A DNA stretch of 24,000 nt from Actinospica sp. (GCA_035493475.1 DATJIF010000029.1:102163-126162), one strand, 5' to 3'. Positions 1,562 to 17,505 are shown, counted from the first letter of the stretch. Notes: a model not told the origin generated them from the letters alone. Made by a program: numbers and translations.

Positions 1562-4342
1562 TCACAGCCAGCCGAGCTGCTTGAGGTCGATGCTCAGCCA
1601 TTTGTAGGCCAGATTGGTTGCGGGTGAGTGGTCGTAGACATCGAGCGCGCCGGTCTGAGCGCCTCCGGCGGCCGCGAATGCCGCTGCAGTGACGCCGCGC
1701 GGGATCAGCCGAGTGAGGTTTCGTGCACGCGGTACCGAGGAGTGGCTCTCGTGCCACTCGTGTTCGGCGACTTGGCGGATCGTCACGTGCGGCGTGGCGA
1801 TGACTGAGCCGGGGGTGAGCGGCTGATCTGTGTCGAGATTATGGTCGGGGTCGAGCGCGCTGAATGTGTAGTCGAGAAGTGGTGAGCCCTGGAAGCCGGA
1901 CTTGTCGCTGGTGATGAGCGTTCCCTCGACCTTGGGCTGGCCCAGTGCGGCAAGGCTGAGCGTGCGTCCGATCCGGGGGAAGTGGTCGGCGACGAGCTGG
2001 CCGTAGCCGAGCAGGGCCTCGCGCCAGACCGATTCAGTCAGCTCGCGCAACCGCTCAGGTGAGTAGGCGTGCCAGACCCAACCCCGATCCCGATAGCCGG
2101 GTGGATTGTCTGGTGCGGGAGCGGGTCTGCGCAGTAGTTCTCCGCGACCGACGAGTTGTTCGCAGCGGCTCGCGAGGTGGTGGAGTTCGTTCAGGCGACT
2201 GGTCGTTCCGTCGGTTGACCTCATTGCGATGAAGTTGCCGTCGATGCTGGCTTCCGCGATCTCGATTGCCCTGAGGACCACGGCGGGATCGATTGGCTGG
2301 TGGTTGGTGTTGCCCTGCCCGACCACGAGGCATGCCAGGTGCCAGTCTCGTTCCGCAGCGAGATGACTGCCCGGGCGTACGAGAAGGGAACGCCGCTCGA
2401 TCAGAGGTTTGAGTTGCATGACAATGTGCTCTGCGGTCCACTGCCATTGCCAGTTGGCGCGGGACGCGACGTGAGCAGTACTGCGGGACGGCCCCCAACC
2501 AGGTCTTCCGATCAAGGGTCGGATCGCCTCCAGTTCCGGAGGCGCGTGCGAAGGGTTCAGGCAGAAAACCTCCGGCAGTTGGCTACCCGCAGCAGCCCAG
2601 CACGCTTCGAACGTCCCGTCCACTGAGAGCCCCACGCCGAGGGAGCGAAGCGTCCCGTCAGGAGCGTCGAAGAGAAGAAAGTGGCGCAGTTCCCGCAGCC
2701 CGTTGAGCCACGCGCTCATTGCGTTTCGCACGGCGCGCCCGGCACTTAGCGTCGCCTGCGCGGAGGCAGGTGCGTGGGGTTGAGGCGTCGAGTCTTGTAC
2801 CTGCGTTCCAGAACCCTCACGGACCCGGTAACCGGAGACCGTCAGTGCTTCGCGAACCAGCCAGCTGGCGAGTCCGGGGTGGGCGCGCGCCATAGGGTCG
2901 AGCAACTGGTCGGCGGCTATCTCCGGATTCGTGGCAAGCGCGACCGCGATCGGGTAGCGCCAGGTTACCGCAGCTGAGAGGTCACTGACGATGTCGTCGA
3001 TGGGTACTTCACGGTGAGTGAGCGCCTCAGCGGCGAATACCTGCTCAAGGATTGCGAGTGGGAAGCGTAATTCGCCATATTGGCCTTCAGCGAGGATGCG
3101 GGAGGCTACCAGGTCTCCGCCAAATGCGATGTCGCTCGCGCGAATCTGGACGCCATTGGTTGCCGCGATGGCGATGCGCCGCAGCGTTGCGCGGACCTGT
3201 TCCCGCACCACTACTACCCCTGTGCGCCCGGCAACTGCCTCAAGGGCGCGTTCCGCGAGCCTGTGTAGGAGCGAAGGTCGGTCCGCGAGGTCGGAAAGGG
3301 AGGCGGCCTCCGCGCCGATCAGGACCGCTAGCAGTGGAGTGCGCGCCGCCTCGGCTAGTTCGGGAGTGAGCCTGTGGGCCATCTGCCATTCGGGGATCTG
3401 CGCGATGGAGGAGGCGATTTCGATGCCGCGTTCGAGAGTCAGTTCCGTGATCGGAACGATCTCACTGGTGGGTACCGGGTAGCCCGGTCGGATCGTCGCC
3501 ACGACGCGGACGTTTCCAGCCGACTCAGCGAAGACGGCTGCCTCATCGAGGAGTTCGCGTACGCGGCGCAGGTCGTTGATCGCGTCCAGTTCGTCGAGTA
3601 CGAGATCGCAGCCGAGCGAAAGAAGGTGTTCCTCACCACCGCACGCTTGCGCAACCATTTCAGGGAGCCCCCGCTGGGTTGCGCGTGCGGGCATCCATAC
3701 CGGCACGGGCCCCGCACCACCGGCGTACGTGTCGATCGACGAACGGTGCCAGATCTCGGCGATCTCGCTCTTACCCGTGCCAAGTTCCCCGACTAAGACG
3801 AGGATCCGGCCGGGCTCAAGCGTGATCAACGGGCTCGGAAGCTCAGTGGCCGACAGCGCGTCCAGAGCACGTAGCAGCATCGTGTCGTCGTCGACGATGT
3901 TACGGAGCCTCCGACGCGTGCGAGTCTCGGAGATCCGCCGGAGACTGTCAGCATCAGCCGGAACGCCGCGGGATGCCAACCAGCGCGGCATCTGTGTCTG
4001 ATCCCGAAGGACCCGCGCCTGCGCGTCACGTTTCCACCGGTGTAGGAGATCGACAACGAACCGCTGCTCGTCAGCGTCGATCAGCTTGCTGCAGGTCTGG
4101 CACAACCAAATGCCATTGGCCTGCGCAGCTCGCTCTTCTGCCGATAGCGACTTGTCATAGCGAGGGCCACCTTCGGCCGCGGCGGTGATGTGCGCCGCCA
4201 CACCGATATTGACAGCCTTCTCCGGGTCTTGAGCAGGGCCCGAAGTGGGCTTTTGGCAGACCGGATTGCTGCACCGATGACCCACGCGCCGCGCGAGCAT
4301 GGTTTTCACGAGCGCGGAGAAGTCATCGCGCGGGTTTGACAC
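1562..4342 (-). CDS. HNH nuclease fused to P-loop STAND/NACHT-like NTPase with long helical C-terminal region (Avs-like single-gene defence candidate)
   Basis: 926-codon ORF with GTG start at 4342. The N-terminus has HRCSNPVC...AAHI...NGIWLCQTC, a Cys4 HNH-type nuclease signature (nt 4058-4282). Walker A is GELGTGKS (nt 3767-3790), Walker B is DLVLDELD, followed by VVATIRP (sensor-1-like). About 600 aa of alpha-helical-looking sequence follow. Confidence 0.85.
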   Translation of the reverse strand: MSNPRDDFSALVKTMLARRVGHRCSNPVCQKPTSGPAQDPEKAVNIGVAAHITAAAEGGPRYDKSLSAEERAAQANGIWLCQTCSKLIDADEQRFVVDLLHRWKRDAQARVLRDQTQMPRWLASRGVPADADSLRRISETRTRRRLRNIVDDDTMLLRALDALSATELPSPLITLEPGRILVLVGELGTGKSEIAEIWHRSSIDTYAGGAGPVPVWMPARATQRGLPEMVAQACGGEEHLLSLGCDLVLDELDAINDLRRVRELLDEAAVFAESAGNVRVVATIRPGYPVPTSEIVPITELTLERGIEIASSIAQIPEWQMAHRLTPELAEAARTPLLAVLIGAEAASLSDLADRPSLLHRLAERALEAVAGRTGVVVVREQVRATLRRIAIAATNGVQIRASDIAFGGDLVASRILAEGQYGELRFPLAILEQVFAAEALTHREVPIDDIVSDLSAAVTWRYPIAVALATNPEIAADQLLDPMARAHPGLASWLVREALTVSGYRVREGSGTQVQDSTPQPHAPASAQATLSAGRAVRNAMSAWLNGLRELRHFLLFDAPDGTLRSLGVGLSVDGTFEACWAAAGSQLPEVFCLNPSHAPPELEAIRPLIGRPGWGPSRSTAHVASRANWQWQWTAEHIVMQLKPLIERRSLLVRPGSHLAAERDWHLACLVVGQGNTNHQPIDPAVVLRAIEIAEASIDGNFIAMRSTDGTTSRLNELHHLASRCEQLVGRGELLRRPAPAPDNPPGYRDRGWVWHAYSPERLRELTESVWREALLGYGQLVADHFPRIGRTLSLAALGQPKVEGTLITSDKSGFQGSPLLDYTFSALDPDHNLDTDQPLTPGSVIATPHVTIRQVAEHEWHESHSSVPRARNLTRLIPRGVTAAAFAAAGGAQTGALDVYDHSPATNLAYKWLSIDLKQLGWL

Positions 4343-4506: not shown

Positions 4507-7494
4507 ATGCGCCCACGTGGCGGACTGAGCCGGGAGGAAGCCGATCGTCTCGACCAGGTCCGCGGACACACGGACCCGGACAACGAGACCTGGACCAGCG
4601 TTTACGACCTGCGCGGCCGCGTCACCGAGAAGGAAGACCCCACCGCCGGCAACTCGTTCATGGCCTACGACCCGAACGGCAACCTCGTCCAGTCCGAGGA
4701 CTCCCGCAGCAAGTACATCTCCTACGTCTACGACAAGCTCGGCCGAACAACCGCCGAATACGCCGCCCAAAACGTGGCCGCCGATCAGACCGCAGGGCCG
4801 AGCGGCACTCAGATGTACCAGTGGTACTACGACAACAGCAACCATGCCATCTCCGGGATGACCAATCCGATCGGACAACTGACCACCCAGACCACGTACG
4901 CGAACGGCGCCACCTACACCGAGCAGACAGCCGGGTTCAACATCTTCGGCGAATCTCTCGGCGAAGAGATCATCATCCCGTCCACTGTCACTGGGCTCGC
5001 CGGCACCTACACGATCACGCACACCTACACCACGTACACGGGCCTGCCGTTCAAGGACACCTACTCCAGCTTCGGCGGCATCAACAGCGAAACCACCGAG
5101 CACAGCTACAGCGGACTGTTTGACAGTCCCAGCGAGCTGGCCGACGCGAACTATGGCTACGCCCAGTACGTCGACTACGACGCGTACAGCCGCCCCACTC
5201 AGGAGCAGATCGGCGGATCCACCGGCACCGCCGAGATCACCAACACCTACGACGTACACACCGGAAGCCTGCACGAGCAGAACATCTCGCGCCAGACCGC
5301 CACCCCCACCGCCGTCGACGACACCGTTTACACCGACGACCCGTCCGGCAACATCACCCAGCAGACTGAGACCCGCCTCGGGTCCTCCAGCGACACCGAA
5401 ACCCAGTGCTACCAGTACAACGGTCTCGACCAACTCAACCAGGCCTGGTCCGCCACCGCCGCCTGCACCACGGCACCGACCGCGAGCAACGTCGCCAACA
5501 CCCTCGGCACGGGCAGCGCCTACTGGGACTCCTGGACCTTCAACAACGAAGGCGACCGTACCGGCCAGACCCAATACGCCATCGGCACCGCGACCACCAA
5601 CACCACCACTACCTACACCTACAGCAGCAGCCAACCCCACACCCTGGCCAGTACAAGCACCACCGGCGGGACCACCGCCAACACCAGCTACGGATACGAC
5701 ACTGCCGGCAACACCACCGGCCGCACCACCCCGACCGACGGCACCCAAACCCTGAACTGGAACAACGCCGAACAACTCGCCTCTGTCAACACCACCACGG
5801 CAGGCACGGCCAACACCGCCGGAACCAGCAGCTACGTCTACGACCCCTCCGGCAAACTGCTCCTGCAAATCACCCCGACCGCCACCACTGTCTACTTCGA
5901 AAACGAACAAGCCACCCACAGCACCAGCAACGGCGCAGTCACCGGCATCCGCTACCTCGCACTCCCTGGTGGCGGCACGGCCGTGCGCACCGGCAACACC
6001 ACCAACTACACCTTCGAGATCACCGACCAGCACGGCACCGCCGACCTCGACCTCGACTACACCTGCCAAACCCCCACCTGGCGCCAATACGACCCTTACG
6101 GCAATTCTCGCGGCGCTACCGCCACCTGGGTTGACAACCGGGGATTCCTCAACGATGTCAACGACACCAGCACCGGCATCACCGACATCGGAGCCCGTTG
6201 GTATGACGCCAGCCTCGGAAGGTTTGCAAGTCTCGATCCCGTCTTCGAAGCGTGGGACACCCTAGCTCTCGGCGGCTACACCTACACCGACGGCAACCCC
6301 GTTGGCGAAGCGGACCCGACGGGTCTTATGCTCCCCTATGGCAAGGCGGCCAGCGACGGGTGCACCACCCAGGCGCAATGCAATTCAGATGTCGTGCAGT
6401 ACAACAAAGAAGTCCTCAGGAACGCAATCACCGAAGCGGGCTGGGACGAGCAGACGGAATGGCACGCGCGAAAGATAGCTGCACAGTATCGCTGCGGCGG
6501 AATCAGCACCGATACCAACTGCGGAACACTGAGCTGGCAACAAGAGCACGAAATCCAGTACAAGTACACTCAGCAGCTCGAGTTACTTCAGAACGAACTC
6601 CTTAAAATCGACAACACCCTCTGGCCCGGGCTCGCCGGCTGCATAAACGGCAACCAGAACGGCGACTGCGTTCCAGCCGTAGCGACCGGCATCACGTTTG
6701 CCAGTGGCGCTGCGGAAGACGACGGCACGAACGCACCCGCCTGCGGAGGAGACAGCTTCACGGCCGACACGAAGGTCCTCACCTCTACGGGCAAGACAGT
6801 GCCGATCACCTCGCTCAAGGTCGGCGACAAGGTGATATCGGCCAACACCACGACCGGGAAGAACCAAGCTGAAACCGTGGACGCAGTCCTTGTCCACCAC
6901 GACACAAACCTCTACAACCTCACCGTCGAGACCGGCCACGGCATCGAAGTCATCCACGCGACCGCCAACCACCTCATCTGGGACCTCACCCAGCACGCCT
7001 GGATCCAAGCTAGCAAGATCCACAAGGGCGACCGGCTCCTCACGGAGAATGGCGCTACGGCAACAGTGGACGGCGGCAGCGCTCCCGCCGACCAAACCGG
7101 TTGGATGTGGGACCTCACCGTACACGACCTGCATGCGTTCTACGTGTTGGCGGGCAACACGCCGGTCCTCGTGCACAATGCCGGTGGTGCGGCCAACTGT
7201 CTTATCGGCCAGCAGGGTGAGGCGGCGTCTGGGATCACCAAGAACACGCGGACGATCATCATCAATGGGCGGCCGCGCATCCCAGATGAGCTCGATCCGG
7301 CTGCGGGTATCATTGGTGAGGTGAAGAACGTGAAGTATCAGTACCTCTCGACCCAGCTGAAGGACGACCTGTCGTATGCGCAAGCGAACGGCTTTCAGTT
7401 CAATCTATATGTGAATAGCGCGACTCAGCTCTCCAGCCCCCTTCAGTCCCTGGTTGACTCAGGGCAGATCAACCTCATCAGGAACATTCCATGA
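4507..7494 (+). CDS. Rhs/YD-repeat polymorphic toxin, N-terminally truncated (Rhs core + PT-HINT + REase-fold toxin)
   Basis: 995 aa. YD repeats occur throughout (YDLRGRVTEKED, YDPNGNLVQSED, YVYDKLGR, YGYDTAGN, YVYDPSGKLL). The Rhs core end is DPYGNSRG...GARWYDASLGRFASLDPV...DPTGLM (nt 6313-6330). An in-frame TAG sits two codons upstream of the ATG (4501-4503). No signal or secretion domain is present. Confidence 0.9.
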   Translation: MRPRGGLSREEADRLDQVRGHTDPDNETWTSVYDLRGRVTEKEDPTAGNSFMAYDPNGNLVQSEDSRSKYISYVYDKLGRTTAEYAAQNVAADQTAGPSGTQMYQWYYDNSNHAISGMTNPIGQLTTQTTYANGATYTEQTAGFNIFGESLGEEIIIPSTVTGLAGTYTITHTYTTYTGLPFKDTYSSFGGINSETTEHSYSGLFDSPSELADANYGYAQYVDYDAYSRPTQEQIGGSTGTAEITNTYDVHTGSLHEQNISRQTATPTAVDDTVYTDDPSGNITQQTETRLGSSSDTETQCYQYNGLDQLNQAWSATAACTTAPTASNVANTLGTGSAYWDSWTFNNEGDRTGQTQYAIGTATTNTTTTYTYSSSQPHTLASTSTTGGTTANTSYGYDTAGNTTGRTTPTDGTQTLNWNNAEQLASVNTTTAGTANTAGTSSYVYDPSGKLLLQITPTATTVYFENEQATHSTSNGAVTGIRYLALPGGGTAVRTGNTTNYTFEITDQHGTADLDLDYTCQTPTWRQYDPYGNSRGATATWVDNRGFLNDVNDTSTGITDIGARWYDASLGRFASLDPVFEAWDTLALGGYTYTDGNPVGEADPTGLMLPYGKAASDGCTTQAQCNSDVVQYNKEVLRNAITEAGWDEQTEWHARKIAAQYRCGGISTDTNCGTLSWQQEHEIQYKYTQQLELLQNELLKIDNTLWPGLAGCINGNQNGDCVPAVATGITFASGAAEDDGTNAPACGGDSFTADTKVLTSTGKTVPITSLKVGDKVISANTTTGKNQAETVDAVLVHHDTNLYNLTVETGHGIEVIHATANHLIWDLTQHAWIQASKIHKGDRLLTENGATATVDGGSAPADQTGWMWDLTVHDLHAFYVLAGNTPVLVHNAGGAANCLIGQQGEAASGITKNTRTIIINGRPRIPDELDPAAGIIGEVKNVKYQYLSTQLKDDLSYAQANGFQFNLYVNSATQLSSPLQSLVDSGQINLIRNIP
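6742..7179 (+). other. Hint (intein-like, pre-toxin HINT) domain inside the Rhs protein
   Basis: CGGDSFTADTKVLTSTGKTVPITSLKVGDKVIS ... HAFYVLAGNTPVLVHN. It has an N-terminal Cys and a C-terminal His-Asn, as in Hint/intein autoproteolytic modules that release polymorphic-toxin tips. Confidence 0.8.
7180..7491 (+). other. C-terminal toxin tip, restriction-endonuclease (PD-(D/E)xK) fold, Tox-REase-5-like
   Basis: 104 aa follow the VHN cleavage motif: GQQGEAASG...RPRIPDELDPAAGIIGEVKNVKYQYLSTQLKD...AQANGFQFNLYV. The PD...E-x-K arrangement and overall pattern resemble REase-fold polymorphic toxin domains. The family assignment is from memory only. Confidence 0.6.
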
Positions 7495-8237
7495 CGGGTG
7501 AGAATAGCTCTAGCGTGAATTCCGGGCGGTTGACGCACAAGCAAGCTGTCGAGAAGGCGCTAAGCGACCCAGTGGCGCGCGCGGCAATTGCGAGTGATCC
7601 GCGTGTGGCTCAACGGCGGCAACTCTATGCGGAGAGTGCGGCAGGATTGCTCGCTGAACTGGCCGACCTGGGCTTCCGTGTCGAGAGCGTCGGCGAGCTC
7701 GCCCGTCAACGCATGAAGTACGAGGCAGCGGTACCGGCTCTGCTCAGGTGGCTTCCTCGAGCGACGTATCTACCGCTGGCCGAGGATATTGTTCGGACGC
7801 TCTCTGTCACCTTCGCAAAGAAGCGGGCATTGCCAGAGTTCTTGAAGTTCTTCCGCTGCCCACCGGACGTGGAAGACCCGATGCGCCCAGCAACCTCAGA
7901 GCCAGCCAGCGAGCATCTCCGTTGGGTCGTCGGTAATGGGTTGGGTATATTTGCAGGGCCTTCAGTTGCTGACGAGCTCATTGAGCTCGCCCTCGACAAA
8001 TCGTTCGGTCAGGCACGAACGCAGATCGTCCTTGCCTTGCCGAAGACGAAAGATAGCAGGGTGGGCGATGTGCTGATTGAGCTTCTCGACGATCCCACTG
8101 TTTGTGCATTCGCCATTGAGGCGCTTGGAAAGACGAAGATCGTCGCAGCCGAAGGGTCGATCGAGAGACTTCTCGACCACCCGGATAAGAATATTAGAGA
8201 CCAAGCCAAGAGGGCTCTTAAACGTATCCGAAGCTGA
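7491..8237 (+). CDS. HEAT-repeat protein, probable cognate immunity protein of the Rhs toxin tip
   Basis: The ATG at 7491 overlaps the Rhs TGA (ATGA, 7491-7494). 248 aa. C-terminal HEAT/PBS-lyase-like repeats (DSRVGDVLIELLDDP, AIEALGKT, SIERLLDHPDKNIRDQAKRALKRI). It uses more A/T-ending codons than its neighbours. Confidence 0.75.
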   Translation: MTGENSSSVNSGRLTHKQAVEKALSDPVARAAIASDPRVAQRRQLYAESAAGLLAELADLGFRVESVGELARQRMKYEAAVPALLRWLPRATYLPLAEDIVRTLSVTFAKKRALPEFLKFFRCPPDVEDPMRPATSEPASEHLRWVVGNGLGIFAGPSVADELIELALDKSFGQARTQIVLALPKTKDSRVGDVLIELLDDPTVCAFAIEALGKTKIVAAEGSIERLLDHPDKNIRDQAKRALKRIRS

Positions 8238-8959: not shown

Positions 8960-10327
8960 TTACCGTGTGTGACGTGGTCGCATTGTGGTCGCGCGGGATC
9001 GTGGTCGCAGGGGTCGGTGTCGTCGGATGACAGGGTTGGTCGGGTGTTTCGGTGTCTCGGTCGGTTCGGTGCGGTGGTCGCGGAGTGGTCGCCGTCCTGA
9101 TTCCAGTGGCACGGGCGTCGTCGGGTGTCGGCTCGCTCGGTCGGCTCGGGTCAGCGTGTTGTCGATGGTGTCCACGGCGTCGCGGGCGGCTTGCGCGGTG
9201 AGGTGGGAGTAGATGTTCGCAGTGGTCGACAGGGTGGAGTGGCGCAGGGTCTTGGAGACGACGGTGAGCGGGACGCCTTCGGTAATCGAGATGGTCGCGG
9301 CCAGGTGGCGGAGGTCGTGGACCGTACAGCGCGGGACGTCGGCGTGGTCGCTGAGTGTGTGGAAGTGCCGGAGGACGTAGCCGGGGTGCAGCGGTCGTCC
9401 GTCGGGGCGGGTGAAGACGTATCCGCCGCCGAAGTCGTGGGCCGTAGTCGGTGTTTTTTCGTTGGCGCGGTGTTCGAGGGCTGTGGCGACGCGGTCGGAG
9501 ATGGCGATCCAGTTCTTGCTGGTGCGGGTCTTCGGGGTGCCGAGGACGAGTCGGTTGTTGTCGACGGCGCACAGGCTCCAGCGGATGTAGAGCGTGCGGG
9601 TGTCGAGGTGGATGTCGTTCCAGTGCAGTCCGAGGGCTTCGCCCTTGCGCATGCCGGTGCCGATGAGGACCTCGATCAGGTCGGCGAAGGCCGGGTCGGC
9701 GCTATGGCGGTGGCGCAGGAACCGGGCGGCCTGTTCGGGTGTCCAGATGCGGCGTTCCTGGGCGGCGGGTCGGGGCAGGACGGTGGGTCGGGCGGGGTTG
9801 CGGGGTAGGCGGTGTCGGCGTACGGCGTCGCCGAGGGCGCTGGAGAGGGTGGCGAGGATCCAGTAGACGGTGACCTGTCCGCGGCCGTTGGCGAGTTGGG
9901 TGTGGACGTAGGCGGCGATGTGCGTGTAGCCGAGGTCGTCGAGGCGTACGGTGCCGAGTGCGGGGATCAGGTCTTGGTGGACGTGGGCGTTGTAGCGGGT
10001 GAACGTGGTGGGTTTCAGCTGTAGTCGCTTGGCTTCGAGCCATTCGGTGAGGTAGTCGGCGAGGGTCTGGTTGGGGTCGGCGTTGAACCCTGCGGCAGTG
10101 CCCTCGAGCAGGCGGCGCAGCGCGGTGCGGGCGGTTTCCTCGGTGGGGAACCCGCCACGGCGGATCGTGCTGCGCCGTTCCGGGTTGGGTAGGTCGACGG
10201 CGAAGCTCCAGGTTCCGTGGCCCGGGTCGGTGTGCAGGGTGGGGCAGCCGGCTCCGAGTTGGCGGTGGTTGTGGTCGCGGCAGCCGCAGCGGCGGTAGAC
10301 GCGGCCCCGGTTCACGGTGTTACGCAT
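8960..10327 (-). CDS. int: tyrosine recombinase / phage-type integrase
   Basis: The ATG at 10327 is preceded by AGGAG with about 8 nt spacing. 455 aa. The N-terminus MRNTVNRGRVYRRCGC is typical of actinomycete integrases. Catalytic residues are present: GMRKGEALGL (Arg), HDLRHLAAT (H-x-x-R), LRHS, ANIYSHL (Tyr). The ORF-track extension to 10900 is upstream read-through. The last about 55 aa are Pro/Arg/Thr/His low complexity. Confidence 0.92.
   Translation of the reverse strand: MRNTVNRGRVYRRCGCRDHNHRQLGAGCPTLHTDPGHGTWSFAVDLPNPERRSTIRRGGFPTEETARTALRRLLEGTAAGFNADPNQTLADYLTEWLEAKRLQLKPTTFTRYNAHVHQDLIPALGTVRLDDLGYTHIAAYVHTQLANGRGQVTVYWILATLSSALGDAVRRHRLPRNPARPTVLPRPAAQERRIWTPEQAARFLRHRHSADPAFADLIEVLIGTGMRKGEALGLHWNDIHLDTRTLYIRWSLCAVDNNRLVLGTPKTRTSKNWIAISDRVATALEHRANEKTPTTAHDFGGGYVFTRPDGRPLHPGYVLRHFHTLSDHADVPRCTVHDLRHLAATISITEGVPLTVVSKTLRHSTLSTTANIYSHLTAQAARDAVDTIDNTLTRADRASRHPTTPVPLESGRRPLRDHRTEPTETPKHPTNPVIRRHRPLRPRSRATTMRPRHTR
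8974..9092. repeat. five copies of GTGGTCGC, two pairs phased at 11 bp (candidate integrase arm-type sites)
   Basis: Exact 8-mers at 8974, 8985, 9001, 9074 and 9085. Pairs 8974/8985 and 9074/9085 are each spaced 11 bp apart and lie exactly 100 bp from each other. They sit between the tRNA remnant and the catalytic part of int, overlapping the low-complexity 3' end of the int ORF. Confidence 0.6.
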
Positions 10328-10380
10328 GATGATCGCTCCTAAATCGACAGGAGCAGGAGCCGACGAACCCATTGTCGACC

Positions 10381-10413
10381 TCGCGGGGATCCCCGCGACC
10401 ACACCGCGACCAC
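10381..10413. promoter_or_regulatory. 18-bp perfect palindrome plus inverted GTGGTCGC pair upstream of int (candidate operator / int promoter region)
   Basis: TCGCGGGGATCCCCGCGA (10381-10398) is a perfect palindrome 54-71 nt upstream of the int ATG. GCGACCAC, the reverse complement of GTGGTCGC, occurs at 10395 and 10406, again 11 bp apart. Confidence 0.45.
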
Positions 10414-10590
10414 AACGACTTACACGGCCAGGTGACCTGCGGCGATCCCTTGACGCGGCGCAAAGTGTGCGCCCGCGAAAAGCGGTTGTGACGAGCCTCC
10501 GGCCTGCCTGGCAGCATGCGTACCGGGGCGCGTTCGACTCACCTCCGCGGGGACGACAGTGTCGTGGTCGGGCCCTGCACCTGCCCAAGA

Positions 10591-10620
10591 GAACTAGCCC
10601 CGCGTGCGCGGGGGTAGTTC
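10591..10620. other. 30-nt near-perfect hairpin (13-bp arms, GTGC loop)
   Basis: GAACTAGCCCCGC-GTGC-GCGGGGGTAGTTC, with one G/G mismatch in the arms. It lies in a non-coding stretch between int and the TIR gene. Confidence 0.5.
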
Positions 10621-10650
10621 CCCAGACGGGAAACAGGTTGGCTGCTGGAA

Positions 10651-10678
10651 CTCTCCTCTCGCGGTCGCGGGAGGAGAG
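10651..10678. other. 28-nt hairpin (13-bp arms, one G-U position)
   Basis: CTCTCCTCTCGCG-GT-CGCGGGAGGAGAG. It lies 30 nt from the previous hairpin, and neither side has a T-tract. Confidence 0.5.
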
Positions 10679-11091
10679 TGCGAAGGAATCCCTCCGAGGT
10701 CGTGTGGCTGGCCATTCATGCGTGGAAGCGCGTCGGGCCGCGGCTCTAAGCACCTGGCCAGGCGCGATGGTAGGAACCCTATGGTCAGCACGTCTGTGAG
10801 GCGCTACAGCTTCTGGATGCGCGGGTTCGGGTCGCTGGCATTCGTGAGAATCCTGGGGCGGTGGTCGTGGGGTTGCGCGGTTGGGGTCTCGGTCGTTCAC
10901 CCGGTTCAGCGCTGATGTGCGGCATGGTCTCCGCCCCGATCAGTTCTTGGAGAAGACGTTCAGAGAGCTGACGAGCAATGTCTGCGCTGTCCAAGGAACG
11001 CCGTGCGTCGAGCAGCGCGAGCAGGGCAAAGCCCCGGGACGCAAGCGAGTATCATGAGGCCGCTGTTCGCGCGTCGCCGCCGAGGCGTAGA

Positions 11092-11763
11092 TCATGGCAG
11101 CAGGTTCACACCCGTGACCTCACCAGTTGTAGCGATTTCGTCGATCTTCATGGTGGCGTCGATTCGTTGCGGTGATCTGGCGGAGGTACGCACTGCAGTC
11201 AGCGAACCGCCAGCAGTGCCGACCTGAATGTCAAGGGAGATCAGGCCATCGGGCGCGTTCGATCGTCGCTCGGCCAAGTCGGGGGCGAGTGCGGTCAGCT
11301 GCTTGATGAGATCGGGTATCAGGCTTCGTTGACGGCCGCCGCGCTCTAGTCGGACGGCCTGTCGGCCCAGAAGCGGCGCGATGTCCCTCGGTAAATCCCC
11401 TTCTCCGGGAAGGGAGACCTCGTTGAGGTTCCCGAGCAGCAGGGGGATGACGTGGTTGCCATTCTCCAGCGCCAACCTGATCTCCCGGCGGACCCAGTCG
11501 TGAGGGTCGTCCAGCCGGCGGGCGCCGTTGCGGTTCTGCGCGGTGAGCCAGCCGGGGCCAATGCAGACGAGCATCACGCGGCACGAAGCGGCTCGGGCTT
11601 CCAGAACTGGTGTGAACTCCTGTCCTGGGCGTAGGGTCTGCCCCGCCTTGAACACGACCTCCGCGCCGAACGCCTCGGCGAGTTTCTCGTAGACGAAGTC
11701 CGGACCCCAGTCGCCGGCCTCGCCGCGGTAGCTGACGAAGATGACGGGCTCACGGTCGGGCAT
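11092..11763 (-). CDS. TIR-domain protein with C-terminal repeat-motif tail
   Basis: The ATG at 11763 has GGAG 7 nt upstream. 223 aa. TIR signatures are VIFVSYRGEAGD, SCRVMLVCIGPGW, DWVRREIRLAL (W-x-x-x-E with the catalytic-type Glu retained) and HVIPLLL. The tail (aa 175-222) is ISLDIQVGTAGGSLTAVRT...IDATMKIDEIATTGEVTGVNLL. The start overlaps the upstream gene by 14 nt. Confidence 0.9.
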   Translation of the reverse strand: MPDREPVIFVSYRGEAGDWGPDFVYEKLAEAFGAEVVFKAGQTLRPGQEFTPVLEARAASCRVMLVCIGPGWLTAQNRNGARRLDDPHDWVRREIRLALENGNHVIPLLLGNLNEVSLPGEGDLPRDIAPLLGRQAVRLERGGRQRSLIPDLIKQLTALAPDLAERRSNAPDGLISLDIQVGTAGGSLTAVRTSARSPQRIDATMKIDEIATTGEVTGVNLLP

Positions 11764-13237
11764 CAAGAGTCTCCAGTCGTGTGGCGGGGGGCCGCGGCCG
11801 CGCGGTGCGCGCCAGGGTGATGATGTCGGGCGCCAGGGCCCGAAGCCGGGCGGCCCGGCGTCGGGACAGGATCGACACGAGGCGTCGCAGGTCGCGTTGG
11901 ATTGTGATCGACCCGTTCGGTACCGCGGGGAGAAAGGATTCGATGACATCGGCCGCCCGGTCGCACTCGTGGACGTGCGCGTACGCTGTCGCCTCCCTGA
12001 TCGCAAAGCAAACCCGGGCGTGTCGGAAGGCCGGGTTCGGCTCCCGATCGTTCGGAAACGTACTCGGCATGGTCGTGGCGAACATATCCGCGGCCCTGCG
12101 GAACTCCTCCAGTTCCAGCAGCCCCGAGGCCTCGGTCAGGCGTGATGAGCTGAGCTCCGGGTCCCACGCCGGACCCCACTCCCAGTCCTCCGCGGACGGG
12201 GAGGACACGTCGTCGGAGACGTCGTAGAAGGCGTCCATCGCGCGCCGGAATCCCTCGCGGTCGCCGCTGCGGGCCCGAGCCCGGGACTCGCGTTGCAGGG
12301 CGATTCGGCGCAGTCTCGTCGGCAGGGCCGGGTCTGACAGCGCGAACTGGACGTGGTGCAGAGCGGAACGCGGATCGTCGGCCCGCAGCGCGGTCGCCGA
12401 TTGGCGGATCGCAGCGTACGCGGCGATCGCGGTGTCTCCGCTGTCGGAGCCGAGACAGACGGCCAGGGCCAGCCATTCATGCATCGCCTGCGCGTCGCCT
12501 AGTTCCTCCGCGAGCCAGCTCAAATACTCCGCATAGCGCGCCTCGACGCGGCGATACGCGAGAGCTCGCCCGGCTGACGCCGTACGTGCGGCTGAGTGGA
12601 GTGCGACGAGCTGGGCGACGACGTCGTTCACTACGGCGGCAGGTCCGACGAGATGCCGTTGTGTGCGTAAACGCTCCAACTCCGCCGCAGCTTCGACGAC
12701 AACCACGTTGACGGGCATCGGGGGCCGGGAACATCCGATCCGGGACAGCAACGACACGCTCGGGACCGTCACCGGATCCGTCGGGCGCCCGGATTCTGCG
12801 GCGAACAGCCTGACCAACGCGCCGCTCTGTCCGAGCTCTTTGTCCAACCGTCCCGCCACGTACTTCGTCCCGAGGGAATGTCCATTCTCAAGCTTGCTGA
12901 CGTACACGTGTGAAAGTCCTGCCGCCTTTGCCAGATCACGTTGCGACAGGCCGACCGCGTTTCTAGCGCGTCGGATCTCCCCGCCGTAGCCGGCGGCTAC
13001 CGGGCACTCCGCTTCAGGTGTGTGGCGCGTGGGCCGCGGCGCGACGACCGGGCCGGGCCGCTCGCATAAGGACTCGTAGACCCGCATCAGGCGCGTGGAT
13101 GCGGGCCGCAGCCCGTTCTCGACCTTGCTCAGGTGACCCTTGCTGTAGTCGGTGAGCCGCACGATCTGCCCCAGGCTGACGCCCGACGCTTCGCGCAGCG
13201 CGCGAAGCGTCCTGCCGTCCCCGCTCGATGTCCCCAT
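11750..13237 (-). CDS. dual XRE-family HTH protein with TPR-like helical C-terminal domain
   Basis: The ATG at 13237 gives 495 aa. It has two Cro/C1-type HTH units (RTLRALREASGVSLGQIVRLTDYSKGHLSKVENG and IRRARNAVGLSQRDLAKAAGLSHVYVSKLENG). About 300 aa of Ala/Leu/Arg-rich helical repeats follow. The ORF-track entry 11750..14953 over-extends upstream, antisense to real plus-strand genes. There is no SD before the ATG, so the transcript may be leaderless. Confidence 0.85.
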   Translation of the reverse strand: MGTSSGDGRTLRALREASGVSLGQIVRLTDYSKGHLSKVENGLRPASTRLMRVYESLCERPGPVVAPRPTRHTPEAECPVAAGYGGEIRRARNAVGLSQRDLAKAAGLSHVYVSKLENGHSLGTKYVAGRLDKELGQSGALVRLFAAESGRPTDPVTVPSVSLLSRIGCSRPPMPVNVVVVEAAAELERLRTQRHLVGPAAVVNDVVAQLVALHSAARTASAGRALAYRRVEARYAEYLSWLAEELGDAQAMHEWLALAVCLGSDSGDTAIAAYAAIRQSATALRADDPRSALHHVQFALSDPALPTRLRRIALQRESRARARSGDREGFRRAMDAFYDVSDDVSSPSAEDWEWGPAWDPELSSSRLTEASGLLELEEFRRAADMFATTMPSTFPNDREPNPAFRHARVCFAIREATAYAHVHECDRAADVIESFLPAVPNGSITIQRDLRRLVSILSRRRAARLRALAPDIITLARTARPRPPATRLETLDARP

Positions 13238-13387
13238 ACGTAGCAAAGTACTGAAAAATCTGGCCTCCTGGGATGCGTCTCGCGACGCTATGGAGTACTT
13301 GGGGAGCGTCGAGTAAACACGCAACAGTTCTCCGCGCGCCGCCGGGTTGCTAGTTTCACTGATCGCCGAACACGTAGATCTGGGGGA
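13238..13387. promoter_or_regulatory. divergent promoter/operator region of the two operons
   Basis: 150-bp gap with the most A/T-rich sequence of the locus (TAGCAAAGTACTGAAAAATC). AGTACT palindromic cores occur at 13247-13252 and 13294-13299. TACTTT ends 8 nt before the HTH-gene ATG and is a possible -10 box for a leaderless transcript. Confidence 0.4.
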
Positions 13388-13927
13388 ATGATGGCTGATC
13401 CAGACACGGTGGCGATTCCGGTGCTCGCCGGAGCGGCACTCACCCAAGGAGTGTCGTTTCTGTACGGCCAGGCTGCCGAGGCGCTGCGGATCAGGCGAGA
13501 GGGCAGGGCGGCGCACCGTTCGGCCCTGCTCGTCCCCGAAGCCTTCGAACCTGCGGACTTCGCTGTAGTCCCCGATCTTGCCGTGCTCGATGCTCGAGCC
13601 CGCGAGCTGCGGATGCTGCTGGCCATCGCTGAGCCGTTTGCGGGGTGCTCTGCGGACGACCTCGACGGTGCAGACGAATCGTTCCGTGCCTGCTTCGGCC
13701 ATATCCGCTTGGCCTTGGAGGAGATCTATGGCACCCGTTTCACGTTCTCTGGCGAACGGCGCCCCGGACCGCGCATCCAGCAGAGCGTCTCCGATGTTCG
13801 CGGCCGCACCACGGGAATGAGGGTCCGCGGCCAGGGGGCGAAAGCATCCGGAGAGATCGTCCAGCGAGTCAAAACCGTCCACCAGAGCGGTGAACTGACC
13901 GGCCTCGACATCGACTTCCGGGCCTGA
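13388..13927 (+). CDS. small protein: N-terminal hydrophobic Gly/Ala helix (Bell/HeLo-like?) + C-terminal repeat-motif tail
   Basis: 179 aa with tandem ATG ATG at 13388 and GGGGGA immediately upstream. The N-terminus is DTVAIPVLAGAALTQGVSFLYGQAAEALRIRREGR. The tail (aa 130-175) is IQQSVSDVRGRTTGMRV...IVQRVKTVHQSGELTGLDI. It lies 72 nt upstream of the STAND-like gene. Confidence 0.7.
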   Translation: MMADPDTVAIPVLAGAALTQGVSFLYGQAAEALRIRREGRAAHRSALLVPEAFEPADFAVVPDLAVLDARARELRMLLAIAEPFAGCSADDLDGADESFRACFGHIRLALEEIYGTRFTFSGERRPGPRIQQSVSDVRGRTTGMRVRGQGAKASGEIVQRVKTVHQSGELTGLDIDFRA

Positions 13928-13999: not shown

Positions 14000-16174
14000 A
14001 TGGACACGCTTGAGGCGGCGAACGCGACGACTCGACAGGAGATGGATGCGCCCGATCCACTCGACCACACCTTGGCGGTGGAGCGGAAACTTGAGCGGCT
14101 TGGGACCTCCATCCCCTCCACGTCGCCGGGCATCGAGGCGACTGCGCACGTGGAGAAGAACGACGGAGTCATCAATCTCTTGAACGTTGTGTTGACCGAG
14201 GCGCTGAAACTCTCGCACCTGGGTCCGGCCTACCTCGACGAGGTCCACGAGACATTTGCCGAGCCCGGTGAGAGCTTCGACCAGGCCTACAACACCCTGT
14301 GCGGCGAGCAGCGATTCGTCGTCCTGAAGCTGCGGCCGGACAGCGGGACGAAGACTGCGGCCATCGCCATGATCAGACGACTCGTGCTGGAGATGCATGT
14401 CGAGTCGAAGTATCTCCTCCCGCACGGCCCGACCGGCCTTCCCACGGCTGCGCTGGCCACTGAGAGGTGCCATGCCTTTCTCATGGATCTGTCCAAGGCG
14501 GAAGAGAGCCGACTCACCAGCGGGTTCGGGAGGGACCTCAAGGCCGCGTCGGCAATCCTGGCCGATGCGAACTCGTACCTGATCGTGCTGGCCGAGGCCG
14601 AGCAGTGGGCCCGGATCAGTGACGGCGTAGAGAGAGGTGTGCTGCATGAATTGCAGGCGCCCGGTCCGGAATCGGTGGCCCGGAAGTGGGTGGCCGCGAA
14701 AGCGCCGGGATGCGACGTCATGAAGTGGTTCGGCGATCGGCGGATCGCGGGACTCTTGCAGGACCAGAGCCCGCGCGAGGCGGTTGAGATCGCGAAGCTG
14801 ATCTGTGCCGCGCTCTCTCCCGAGATCCAGCCCGAGCGCACCGCAACCGCTGTGAAATCGGACTCTTCGGCCGCGGACACAGATTTTCAAGTGCGGGTCG
14901 CCAGCGTTGTGGACGCTCGAAGGCAGTGGCGCCCACAACTCCTGGACTGGCACAGGGAACCGAAACGGACGGCTTTCGAACGCAACTTCCTGCTCGTTGC
15001 CGCCGTGTTACGCGAGTTCCCGGTCGGAGCCGTTTTCAAGGAAGCGAAGTACCTGAGCGAGCAGTTCAAGGACGTGGGCGAGCGTATGAAGGGTCAGAGC
15101 GGTCCGGGTGTCATTGAACTGCTGCACACGATCGGCGCGCCCACCGACCCCGGCGGCAAGGTCCGCTTCTCACGCCCGCGATGGGCCGAGGCCGTCGTCG
15201 ACTACTACTGGAGTGACCGGCCCGACGGCCACGACGCCTTCATCAGCTGGCTGATTCGACTGCCGTTGAGCCGTACGTTCCAGGACGACGAGCGTGCCAC
15301 CGTGGCCAATCGCGTCCTTGAGGTCATGTTCGGTCTGATCATGACGAAAGCCCGGGTCAACGAGCTTGAACACGTCATCGACCAGTGGAGCGCCCAGCCG
15401 AACACGGAGACTGCGGCTTGGGACTTCCTCGACGCCGCCGCGCTGCACCACACATTGGGCCGTCAGGTCGCTCAGCTCATGCTCCGCTGGACGGGTACGG
15501 CTCATGTCCGTCGGCGCAAAGCAGTCGCGGCGGTATGCGGCCGCCAATTCGGACGAACCAATACAGGGAAGGCGCTCGTGCGGCTCCGCCGCCTTGTCGC
15601 CGACGAAGAGCCCGAGGTCGCCGCAGTGGCCGAACGGGCCTTGGTCGCGCTGTGGGAGCAGCCGGACGTCGGCCGCGAGCTTCTCGAACACCTCGTCGAG
15701 TGGCAGAAGACTGATGTCGCGGACCGTGTCGTGGCTGCCCGGAACATCTTCGGCAAGATCGCCGCGCTCCGCTCGCGGACCGACCCGACTCGCCCAGACC
15801 TACTGGTCTGGGCAGTGGCGAACGACGAGAATCTGAGCCTGGTGGCCGAGGGATGGCGCTGTCTGCTGGAAGGTGGCATCGAGTGTGATCCGCTGGTCGA
15901 CGCGTTGCGCCCATGGCTCGCGATGGCACGGGACGAAGCGGACGTCGAAGCCGACGTGATGTCCGTGTTCGAACGGGCCATCTCAGGACGACGGCGGGCA
16001 GCGGAAAGGCTGGAAAGGGCCGCCCAAGACTGGCGTTGGTCCACCGGTGACGTGGACCAGAGCCCGGCCGGCCGCCTCGTTCGCCGGCTCAGCGGACTCA
16101 CGGCGCAAGAACCGGTCACGACCATGTTCGCGGCGACGTTCGACGTTTCCAGTGAGCAAGGATATGGGGCGTGA
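14000..16174 (+). CDS. STAND/NLR-like protein with N-terminal repeat motif, degenerate P-loop and HEAT/ARM-like C-terminal region
   Basis: The ATG at 14000 is preceded by GAGGGAGAA. 724 aa. The N-terminal motif is IEATAHVEKNDGVINLL (aa 45-61, nt 14132-14182). The strand-plus-P-loop-like segment RFVVLKLRPDSGTKTAAIAMI (nt 14330-14356 covers LRPDSGTKT) keeps Lys-Thr but lacks both canonical glycines. A Walker-B-like HAFLMDLS follows. The C-terminal half is a helical repeat (EEPEVAAVAERALVALWEQPDVGRELLEHLVEW). Confidence 0.8.
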   Translation: MDTLEAANATTRQEMDAPDPLDHTLAVERKLERLGTSIPSTSPGIEATAHVEKNDGVINLLNVVLTEALKLSHLGPAYLDEVHETFAEPGESFDQAYNTLCGEQRFVVLKLRPDSGTKTAAIAMIRRLVLEMHVESKYLLPHGPTGLPTAALATERCHAFLMDLSKAEESRLTSGFGRDLKAASAILADANSYLIVLAEAEQWARISDGVERGVLHELQAPGPESVARKWVAAKAPGCDVMKWFGDRRIAGLLQDQSPREAVEIAKLICAALSPEIQPERTATAVKSDSSAADTDFQVRVASVVDARRQWRPQLLDWHREPKRTAFERNFLLVAAVLREFPVGAVFKEAKYLSEQFKDVGERMKGQSGPGVIELLHTIGAPTDPGGKVRFSRPRWAEAVVDYYWSDRPDGHDAFISWLIRLPLSRTFQDDERATVANRVLEVMFGLIMTKARVNELEHVIDQWSAQPNTETAAWDFLDAAALHHTLGRQVAQLMLRWTGTAHVRRRKAVAAVCGRQFGRTNTGKALVRLRRLVADEEPEVAAVAERALVALWEQPDVGRELLEHLVEWQKTDVADRVVAARNIFGKIAALRSRTDPTRPDLLVWAVANDENLSLVAEGWRCLLEGGIECDPLVDALRPWLAMARDEADVEADVMSVFERAISGRRRAAERLERAAQDWRWSTGDVDQSPAGRLVRRLSGLTAQEPVTTMFAATFDVSSEQGYGA

Positions 16175-16920
16175 AACGGTGGTGGAGGAGCGGTTCGGGC
16201 AACCTGGCGTGGCTCGAACCGTTCAGCGACCGCGTGCCCGGCGCGGATGGCTTTGGCTTCGACGTCGAATACCACATCGAAATACTCGCCGCCGACGCGG
16301 ATGCCTTGTCGACGCAGTATGACCCGTGTATAGCTGCCGTCCGCACGCTGGTTGAGCCGGCCTTGGCCCAGTGTGACGTCCTGCGTTCCGCAGTTGCACA
16401 ACAGAGTGTGAATTTACAGATATCGAGATCAATGTCGAAGCGCGAACTGGGTGCCGTCATCCGGCAATGCCAGGTGTCCGTTCGGGTTGGGCGCGAGACC
16501 GCCGAATCGGCCAGACGGCACGCCAAGGCGCTCATGGATGCGAAGGCCCATGAGGTGGGCCGAGACGCGGTACGTGCGCAGATGCGATTCCTTGAGACGG
16601 AAGTGCTGCGCAACCCGGCGACACTTCGGGTCTACATCTTGGCGACCGAGATCATGCAGGACAAGTCTGTCTCCGCCAAGGGCGTCGACGAGCTGGAGTC
16701 CCTGGCCAGACTGGTTTATGAGTGGTCGCCCGAGGCCACGTGGGTGGAGACCGCGAAGATCCTGAACGCCCACCTCGGTAGCCTCCCTTGCCACGAAGTC
16801 TCGGCCCTGCTCTCGACGCTCCGGAAAAGCATCCAAGAGCACGACAATCCGGCCCTGGTCGATCGGTTCGACCGGATCCACCATGGGCAGCAGGCCGACA
16901 GCCTCGTGAAGGGGACGTGA
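16171..16920 (+). CDS. hypothetical protein (helical/coiled-coil-looking), translationally coupled
   Basis: The GTG at 16171 overlaps the upstream TGA (GTGA), with AAGGA 8 nt upstream. 249 aa. No recognisable domain. The central region ETAESARRHAKALMDAKAHEVGRDAVRAQMRFLETEVL looks coiled-coil. Confidence 0.7.
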   Translation: MKRWWRSGSGNLAWLEPFSDRVPGADGFGFDVEYHIEILAADADALSTQYDPCIAAVRTLVEPALAQCDVLRSAVAQQSVNLQISRSMSKRELGAVIRQCQVSVRVGRETAESARRHAKALMDAKAHEVGRDAVRAQMRFLETEVLRNPATLRVYILATEIMQDKSVSAKGVDELESLARLVYEWSPEATWVETAKILNAHLGSLPCHEVSALLSTLRKSIQEHDNPALVDRFDRIHHGQQADSLVKGT

Positions 16921-17393
16921 CGGTGTTTCGGCTGATGACCATCGTGTCCGTGGGACACGGCAGAACCAGAAAGCCATCGATGTGGAGGGGGCACGGCAGG
17001 CGGCTAGACAGGGCGCTCGGGATTTCGACGCTGACCCTTCATTGTCACGAAGACAGCTGGGGGGAAATACAGCGCCTGATGGAGCGCGTCGCGATCTGGA
17101 ATGCCTCCCAGGCCGTCACCTACCATTCGAAGCCACACGTTGAGGTGCGGTTGCCCGGCCCGAAGGTTGCCGCTGCACTGCACGAGATGCGGGTCAACGC
17201 CTTCGTCGGAAACGCCTACGACCGAGCCTTCGTCCGGTGCGCCTACACTGCGCTGGCATTGGTCGTCGACCAGTTCGACCCGTTGAACCCGGGTAAGCCC
17301 CTGCCGCCGGTCGTCTTCGACTGGTTTACTTACGGCGTCGGCGGCCAACTGCCGTGGTCCGGCCGCTACGACCGCAGCACTGATCGAGAATGA
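16917..17393 (+). CDS. hypothetical protein, translationally coupled
   Basis: The GTG at 16917 overlaps the upstream TGA (GTGA). Alternative in-frame starts are GTG 16923, with the best spacing to GAAGGGGA at 16908-16915, and ATG 16935. About 152-158 aa. No recognisable domain. The ORF-track start at 16788 overlaps the previous gene and is unlikely. Confidence 0.6.
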   Translation: MTVFRLMTIVSVGHGRTRKPSMWRGHGRRLDRALGISTLTLHCHEDSWGEIQRLMERVAIWNASQAVTYHSKPHVEVRLPGPKVAAALHEMRVNAFVGNAYDRAFVRCAYTALALVVDQFDPLNPGKPLPPVVFDWFTYGVGGQLPWSGRYDRSTDRE

Positions 17394-17505
17394 GGGAAGT
17401 GACGCTGTGATGCACCTCGGGGTCATGGAGAAACGCTGAGTTGTTCGCGGATGCGGCGACGGCTTCGGTCAGTTCCGGTGGAGGGTACTCAGGGCGTTGC
17501 GTGGA

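Follow-up and report, generated by a model that had tools for sequence, protein, structure and literature searches.

A conserved small protein family coupled to a receptor-like gene in an amyloid-signalling-like cassette of Actinospica and other actinobacteria

Amyloid-signalling units of the Bell-BASS/NLR type, described from filamentous bacteria, consist of two genes (Dyrka et al. 2020, bioRxiv 10.1101/2020.01.06.895854). A stretch of 24,000 nucleotides (nt) from Actinospica sp. (GCA_035493475.1 DATJIF010000029.1:102163-126162; hereafter the window, with positions counted from its first letter) contains a longer unit, in which genes for an effector candidate of 179 amino acids (aa) and a receptor-like protein of 724 aa are followed by two small genes, for proteins of 249 and 158 aa. 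An earlier note, made from this sequence alone, had drawn attention to the two small genes and to the overlaps that couple them to the large one. The locus raises the question of whether the two small open reading frames (ORFs) are genuine genes that belong to the unit and, if so, what their products might do. The features of the unit are:

13388–13927, plus strand: 179-aa Bell-like effector candidate, in which an acidic residue precedes a hydrophobic N-terminal helix and a helical domain lies before two pseudo-repeats at the C-terminus
14000–16174, plus strand: ORF of the 724-aa receptor-like protein, ending in GGG GCG TGA with the stop codon at 16172–16174
16171–16174, plus strand: GTGA overlap of the 724-aa and 249-aa genes (junction 1), with an AAGGA Shine-Dalgarno sequence 8 nt upstream of the GTG at 16171
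16171–16920, plus strand: ORF of the 249-aa protein, with a GTG start at 16171 and a TGA stop at 16918–16920; proposed non-enzymatic partner subunit of the receptor
16917–16920, plus strand: GTGA overlap of the 249-aa and 158-aa genes (junction 2); another candidate start, the GTG at 16923, lies 2 nt past the stop
16917–17393, plus strand: ORF of the 158-aa protein, from the in-frame GTG at 16917; 156 aa if the start is the GTG at 16923

The 724-aa and 249-aa genes form an invariant, co-diverging pair, and the series 179 → 724 → 249, extended by the 158-aa gene in some loci, is one coupled unit. Loci with a 724-like gene were collected from (i) protein look-ups, (ii) a scan of species-representative genomes with a 724 family seed, which gave 33 loci in Streptomyces, Amycolatopsis, Saccharothrix and Catenulispora, and (iii) a scan of metagenomes with a 249-like sub-alignment as seed, which gave locus L044. 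Their gene content was judged by iterated hidden Markov models (HMMs) over all six-frame ORFs. This set comprises 41 fetched loci (23 non-redundant) plus L044. Each of the 41 has a 249-like gene directly 3' of its 724-like gene, and the same pair is present in L044, which was found independently through the 249-like family. A 179-like gene lies 5' of the 724-like gene for 38 of the 43 724-like ORF matches, the cases without one being L010, L043 and truncated contigs such as L001. Since the 249-like gene occurs in every locus and the 179-like gene in nearly all, the conserved core comprises three genes and not two. The 158-like gene is limited to the window, L001–L004 and Catenulispora (L001–L006/L011), and in other clades the operon terminates after the 249-like gene. 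The earlier note had asked whether homologues of both small proteins always stand beside the 724-like family: for the 249-aa protein the answer is positive, a 249-like gene coming after the 724-like gene in all of these loci including L044, whereas the 158-like protein is confined to one clade.

The members of the core also diverge together. Non-synonymous divergence (dN) of the 179-aa, 724-aa and 249-aa genes is strongly correlated across 89 locus pairs (r = 0.95–0.97), which indicates that the three genes are passed on and diverge together as a module, without shuffling. In the most divergent locus, from Solwaraspora sp. WMMA2056 (L010, 7126–10924), the 724-like/249-like pair is retained and an unrelated 292-aa protein takes the place of the Bell-like one, the 3' end of its gene sharing 4 nt with the 724-like start; one effector may have been swapped for another.

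Both GTGA overlaps lie exactly where the earlier note had placed them, and its view of the three genes as one translationally coupled unit is supported by the wider family. Overlap is seen in about 20% of collinear prokaryotic gene pairs and in 42% of Bell/NLR pairs (Dyrka 2020, bioRxiv 10.1101/2020.01.06.895854). Overlaps are thus commonplace, and what goes beyond chance is the conservation of the overlap throughout the family and not its presence in the window. At junction 1, an overlap of 4, 8, 11, 17 or 20 nt occurs in 39 of the 41 loci (22 of the 23 non-redundant ones), the exceptions being L024 (a gap of +10 nt) and the degenerate L043. The junction reads GTGA or ATGA in L001, L002, L005 and L006, and public gene calls, which were made independently, agree on it for L006, L007, L008 and L010. 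At junction 2, the genes overlap or abut in five of six distinct loci, with ATGA in L002, L003/L004 and L006, TAATG in L001 and a spacer of ~74 nt in L005. Stop/start overlap or abutment conserved among homologous loci, by which a translationally coupled operon is recognized, is therefore found here.

The start of the 158-aa gene needs some care. An AAGGGG box at 16908–16913 lies 2–3 nt from the GTG at 16917 and ~8 nt from the in-frame GTG at 16923, which is kept in the close relatives L001–L004. Because the Shine-Dalgarno spacing is better for the second codon, the true start may be the GTG at 16923, 2 nt after the 249-aa stop and not overlapping it. Coupling of the two genes is plausible with either start. 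The protein, which the earlier note had given as about 155 aa, has 158 aa, or 156 aa if it begins at 16923.

Long spurious ORFs are numerous in high-GC DNA and public gene calls are inconsistent for both small genes, so one could suppose that the two ORFs are non-functional, i.e. read-through remnants or mis-annotated frames of a high-GC genome. In public annotation, the 158-aa gene is called at only 104 aa, which is an under-call of a full-length, conserved ORF. The counterparts in Catenulispora sp. GP43 (L005, 9998–11379) are likewise called at 185 aa and 97 aa although full-length ORFs are present, and one of these truncated genes has been auto-named 'putative transcriptional regulator'. 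Against such a supposition, the GC content at the three codon positions is 0.66/0.45/0.78 in the 249-aa ORF and 0.62/0.48/0.79 in the 158-aa ORF, as is usual for genes of a high-GC genome; the signal at the third position (GC3) is frame-specific, the high-GC3 frame changing at ~16100 and ~16900, and overlapping antisense ORFs show shadow patterns. Moreover, the ratio of non-synonymous to synonymous divergence (dN/dS) against homologues is well below 1 in 20 pairwise comparisons (dS 0.6–2.1): it is 0.21–0.41 (about 0.27) for the 249-aa gene and 0.21–0.45 for the 158-aa gene, similar to the values for the adjoining 179-aa and 724-aa genes. Length, synteny and N-termini are conserved though synonymous sites are near saturation. 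Both ORFs are protein-coding genes under purifying selection, and the present data effectively refute the idea that they are non-functional.

We then considered what the 249-aa protein is. A k-mer-limited search of 5.8 billion proteins returned two relatives for each of the small proteins (P0002 and P0003 for the 249-aa protein), and further relatives of both occur in Catenulispora. An exhaustive HMMER search with a 249 profile extended the 249-like family to 57 representative clusters (50% identity), all from actinobacteria, and the clades within it are homologous to each other (hhalign probability 86–96%). Its members stand alone and nearly all measure 149–268 aa; the sole outlier, a match of 419 aa, is composed of repeated weak stretches, and fusion to another domain was seen in none of the 57 clusters. 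The named members, from Streptomyces, Micromonospora or Catenulispora, are all annotated 'hypothetical protein'. The residues that are near-invariant in 23 diverse sequences (G27, F30, N81, L84, P149, Y155, E176, W191, A195, L205 and L213) look like a structural set and not a catalytic one.

That neither small protein has a recognizable domain, as the earlier note had said, is borne out by searches of Pfam, NCBIfam, PADLOC and PHROG, in which neither gave a match singly or member by member, and by profile searches against all PDB sequences, in which nothing significant was found for the 249, 158, 724 and 179 families. AlphaFold2 models of the two small proteins were built on three-sequence alignments. 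The 249-aa model (pLDDT 53) has a beta-alpha-alpha-beta-beta unit, a helix of ~38 residues (108–145) and a C-terminal helical bundle, and the 'coiled-coil-looking centre' of the earlier note corresponds to this modelled helix. Foldseek of the model against PDB gave no match at E<=1e-3 and TM-scores below 0.3.

Several candidate identities for the small proteins were rejected: (i) matches of the 249-like family to DarP occur in 4 of 23 members (best E=8e-4), lie within the charged helix and were treated as compositional; (ii) an SPFH/band-7-like fold, suggested by the order of a beta/alpha unit and a long helix and by the string QMRFLETE, finds no Pfam Band_7 signal in 23 members; and (iii) hidden paralogy of the small proteins with the 724-aa, 179-aa, TIR or HTH proteins of the locus receives hhalign probabilities below 1% in all cases. 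The segment FDVEYHIEILA of the 249-aa protein, in which the earlier note had seen a weak and possibly chance echo of the tail motif, is indeed a chance likeness and was discarded as a signalling motif: it scores −2.9 bits against a motif HMM, and 22% of shuffles do as well; it has 3 of its 11 residues in common with the TIR tail, and the best-scoring position varies among homologues. Family-wide, the segment is a conserved beta-strand, PG[YF]xFxhxhxGxW, within the globular N-terminal unit.

The protein to which the 249-like family is tied belongs to a family of its own, with 16 homologue clusters that are exclusively actinobacterial. The 724-aa protein consists of an N/G/Q-type motif at aa 44–66, a degenerate P-loop-like segment and a Trp-rich helical C-terminal two-thirds. 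The N-terminal motif is present as a single conserved copy, [IV]xQx[VL]xxNxGxxx[IV]G[VI]Q, throughout the family. The P-loop-like segment is RPDSGTKT in the window (aa ~112–119, 14330–14360) and RPDSGT[KR]T, GTGRYT or GSGRKT across the family, i.e. with a one-residue insertion or a K→R change, so that the family may consist of pseudo-NTPases. The window protein has no NACHT, NB-ARC or AAA match in Pfam, and hints of an NTPase in the family are weak, namely a match to the RecD P-loop region at E=0.12 (profile against PDB) and one to AAA_30 in 1 of 15 members (E=0.006). No TPR, WD or LRR sensor repeats, nor any other repeat family, were detected in 15 members. Of the features that define STAND/NLR proteins, neither an intact Walker A (GxxxxGK[ST]) and Walker B in a recognizable NOD module nor C-terminal sensor repeats were found. 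The label 'STAND-like', which the earlier note had given to the 724-aa protein, is therefore not established, because its Walker A is degenerate and it lacks a NACHT, NB-ARC or AAA match.

The genes around the two small ones fit the amyloid-signalling paradigm loosely, as judged from their predicted products. The 179-like proteins open with M(M)ADPD.. or MPDP.., after which come a hydrophobic helix and a helical region; Bell, HeLo and Bab domains have been described with an acidic residue and then a hydrophobic helix at the N-terminus. They are ~175–210 aa long, compared with 120–140 aa for typical Bell proteins, and have no match among PDB chains or in Pfam. The C-terminus of the 179-aa protein carries two G/Q/T-rich pseudo-repeats of a putative signalling motif, the first of which shares the pattern h-x-Q-x-h-x4-G-x3-G-h with the head of the 724-aa protein in a fixed register. 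Anchored, ungapped 15-mers have a mean BLOSUM score of +13.3 compared with −10.8 ± 2.4 for shuffles (z ~10), and heads and tails of the same locus score above mismatched pairs (p = 0.04). We rate this likeness as suggestive only, because the register was picked after inspecting the data. With Smith-Waterman on the whole tail, only 3 of 21 loci reach significance.

A second effector candidate and a regulator are encoded on the opposite strand:

11092–11763, minus strand: 223-aa TIR_2 protein (TIR_2 E=2.4e-9), its start overlapping the end of the HTH gene by 14 nt
11750–13237, minus strand: 495-aa regulator in which two HTH_31/XRE domains are combined with an NsdA-like TPR region, divergent from the cassette
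13238–13387, no strand: control region between the divergently transcribed genes, containing non-coding blocks that the window shares with Catenulispora

The tail of the TIR protein, TGEVTGVNLL, matches SGELTGLDIDF, the second repeat in the tail of the 179-aa protein, and not the receptor head. The match holds in all three loci with a TIR gene, including both Catenulispora loci, and implies two predicted effectors with one common signalling tail. TIR2 effectors with BASS tails have already been published.

These observations lead us to think it probable that the 249-aa protein serves the 724-aa receptor as an obligate partner subunit without enzymatic activity, in a horizontally acquired, BASS-like cassette for regulated cell death or defence, and that the 158-aa protein is a later, clade-specific accessory. 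The reasons are that a 249-like gene always follows the 724-like gene, their overlap is conserved, the trio co-diverges and the conserved residues appear non-catalytic. Both small genes are at the distal end of what would be one operon, 179 → 724 → 249 → 158, in which translational coupling would supply the 249-aa protein at fixed stoichiometry beside the nascent receptor. The two proteins would form a physical complex that decides whether the N-terminal motif of the 724-aa protein nucleates, and the 249-aa protein would have a regulatory and not a catalytic role within it. Nucleation would template the C-terminal motifs of the 179-aa Bell-like effector and, in the clade of the window, also those of the TIR effector, while the 158-aa protein would modulate either the added TIR arm or the 724/249 complex.

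How the 249-aa protein might regulate the receptor can be seen in more than one way. It could be an antitoxin-like or anti-nucleation brake on the receptor or on its N-terminal motif, which blocks spontaneous, prion-like firing until an infection cue removes or inactivates it and the effectors fire. Such a brake is a sub-case of the partner subunit and agrees with the obligate 1:1 coupling and co-divergence of the gene with that of the receptor and with its seemingly non-catalytic residue conservation. Spontaneous prion conversion of BASS motifs has been published, and with a degenerate Walker A the receptor may be missing a nucleotide switch, in which case regulation in trans would be useful. 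However, characterized Bell/NLR and Bab/Agp systems function without such a brake, and the domain searches revealed no similarity of the 249-aa protein to antitoxin or chaperone families. We regard a brake as rather unlikely.

Alternatively, the 249-aa protein, the 158-aa protein or both could be extra sensor or specificity subunits that pass the signal of a phage or non-self ligand to the 724 scaffold. The missing TPR, WD or LRR repeats of the receptor would suit this idea, as would evolutionary rates: median dN/dS is 0.40 for the 249-aa gene and 0.49 for the 724-aa gene, a difference that is not significant, and the 249-aa gene evolves faster than the 179-aa effector gene (0.375, p = 2e-5). 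Yet the conserved core of the 249-like family is compact, with neither a hypervariable region nor a repeat architecture, and the rate test compares locus pairs that are not independent of each other. Nor does dN/dS separate a sensor from a brake. The sensor role appears unlikely, a little more so than the brake.

The 158-aa protein calls for a separate assessment. It is basic (pI 9.75) and its family has the invariant residues H26, C43-H44, E76, D118 and D121, which could form a metal or active site; its AlphaFold2 model has a pLDDT of 41. TIR and HTH-TPR genes are limited to the clade with a 158-like gene, i.e. the window and Catenulispora, and the 495-aa regulator was found only there. Most likely, from this distribution, the 158-aa protein is a clade-specific accessory or modulator that arrived with the TIR effector and the HTH-TPR regulator. 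The strict co-occurrence of the three genes, together with the potential metal or catalytic site, might also mean that it is an immunity protein, inhibitor or small enzyme of the TIR NADase arm, which neutralizes basal TIR activity or processes the TIR product. An Imm1 (PF14430) match of the window protein points the same way; however, this match is sub-threshold (13.9 bits compared with a cutoff of 22.4; E=0.096) and occurs in 1 of 6 members only, hence at chance level, and we reject an Imm1 identity. Furthermore, the 158-aa gene lies at the far end of the opposite operon and does not adjoin the TIR gene, the correlation comes from one clade, and the model is unusable. Such a role as immunity protein, inhibitor or enzyme is improbable in our estimate.

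Several points weigh against the 249-aa protein as partner subunit and the 158-aa protein as accessory. Profile HMMs of the tails do not retrieve heads, nor do those of the heads retrieve tails, and the 724-like protein has no significant match to any STAND or NTPase family. No 724/249 fusion protein occurs among the 57 clusters. The ~74-nt gap before the 158-like gene in L005 means that coupling at junction 2 is not obligatory, and the correlation of the 158-like, TIR and HTH genes comes from a single clade and perhaps reflects one evolutionary event. Finally, because confidence is low for both models (pLDDT 53 and 41) and Foldseek with the 249-aa model returned nothing credible, a cryptic enzymatic or effector fold may be hidden in these proteins.

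We also compared the cassette with known systems. It is like Bell-BASS/NLR units in that (i) a small effector candidate has an acidic residue before its hydrophobic N-terminal helix and pseudo-repeated G/Q/N-rich motifs at its C-terminus, (ii) a large protein with a single N-terminal copy of a similar motif is encoded next to it, downstream and on the same strand, and (iii) the host belongs to the filamentous actinobacteria, where TIR2 effectors with tails of this kind are documented. By contrast, the large protein of the window has no detectable NB-ARC, NACHT, TPR or WD domain and its Walker A is degenerate, the identity of the motifs is too weak for profile HMMs, and the cassette adds a third gene (249-like) always and a fourth (158-like) sometimes. 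Bab/Agp, an antiphage abortive-infection system of E. coli, has two genes and a BASS11 motif (Ibarlosa et al. 2024, bioRxiv 10.1101/2024.11.07.622273). As is predicted for the cassette, its Bell-related, pore-type effector is switched on through amyloid templating by a large non-NLR partner encoded beside it; it also lies in a defence island, and its motif is likewise attached to TIR and other effectors, but no 249-like or 158-like partner has been described for it. The iSTAND ternary systems (Kaur et al. 2020, PMC7159879) and KpAvs8 (PMC13581612) also combine a degenerate nucleotide-binding receptor with separately encoded partners in multicellular bacteria. The MoxR and vWA partners that define iSTAND systems are absent here, and membership of the 724-aa protein in STAND is itself unproven. 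In the literature, we found no description of a third conserved partner in amyloid-signalling systems or of the 724-like receptor family. Both small proteins accordingly go beyond the two-gene Bell/NLR units, as the earlier note had proposed, and likewise beyond Bab/Agp, and what is new, in terms of predicted gene products, is a BASS-like cassette that combines a non-canonical receptor with an obligate third component from a new stand-alone family and has a six-gene form in the window.

The surroundings of the cassette bear on its origin and possible use. It sits between a tyrosine (phage-type) integrase gene (8960–10900, minus strand) and core genes, and its GC3 is ~0.76–0.79 compared with 0.90–0.91 in the adjoining response-regulator and HPF genes, which indicates horizontal acquisition. 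The acquired island is suggested to stop just past the 158-aa gene, with a boundary near 17400–17500. No copy of the cassette was found in tblastn searches of plasmids and phages or in scans of viral contigs. PADLOC-DB v2 gave no match for the 179-aa, 724-aa, 249-aa, 158-aa or TIR proteins and only generic HTH models for the HTH regulator. Beside related cassettes lie a Gabija-like GajA/GajB pair in three non-redundant loci, including L006 (12402–15655), type I-E CRISPR-Cas genes in L007 (1–3943) and L008 (2177–4672), a UvrD-like fragment after the L001 cassette (3143–3883) and many transposases. A function in defence, within a genomic island, would be consistent with the integrase and an RHS toxin in the window and with Gabija and CRISPR-Cas beside related cassettes.

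Two further observations concern the flanks. The region at 4507–8237 (plus strand) encodes the C-terminal part of an RHS-repeat polymorphic toxin (RHS_repeat, PT-HINT, Tox-REase-7) and then a HEAT-repeat protein, the start of whose gene (7491–8237) overlaps the toxin stop by 4 nt; the latter is probably the immunity gene of the toxin. In the 150-bp region at 13238–13387, blocks ~90% identical to Catenulispora (CAAAGTACTGAnAAATC, GAGTrAACAsGCAACAGTTC and GTTGCTAGTTTCAyTGATCGCC) stand between genes with near-saturated synonymous sites and probably serve the HTH-TPR regulator as operator or promoter sites.

A wider proposal can be made tentatively, although we doubt it more than we believe it: the 179-aa, 724-aa and 249-aa proteins would form an undescribed three-component amyloid-signalling system for death or defence in filamentous actinobacteria, whose pseudo-NTPase receptor no longer has a nucleotide switch of its own and relies on a co-receptor or brake of new fold (249-like). 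One clade would have become dual-effector (a pore-former plus a TIR NADase), with an HTH-TPR regulator and a fourth, 158-like subunit. If this is true, bacterial functional-amyloid nucleation would have its first dedicated trans-acting controller in the 249-like family.

In brief, bacterial amyloid-signalling systems for cell death have so far been viewed as pairs of receptor and effector, to which a coupled third component, conserved throughout the family, is now added. This component bears on how nucleation of an amyloid switch is held off and triggered, and the existence of the cassette in three-gene and six-gene forms makes a direct comparison possible. Roughly 100 hypothetical proteins of Streptomyces and related genera gain names. 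The comparative evidence for the 724/249 partnership is strong, and the pair may offer a handle on the control of amyloid switches in these actinobacteria.

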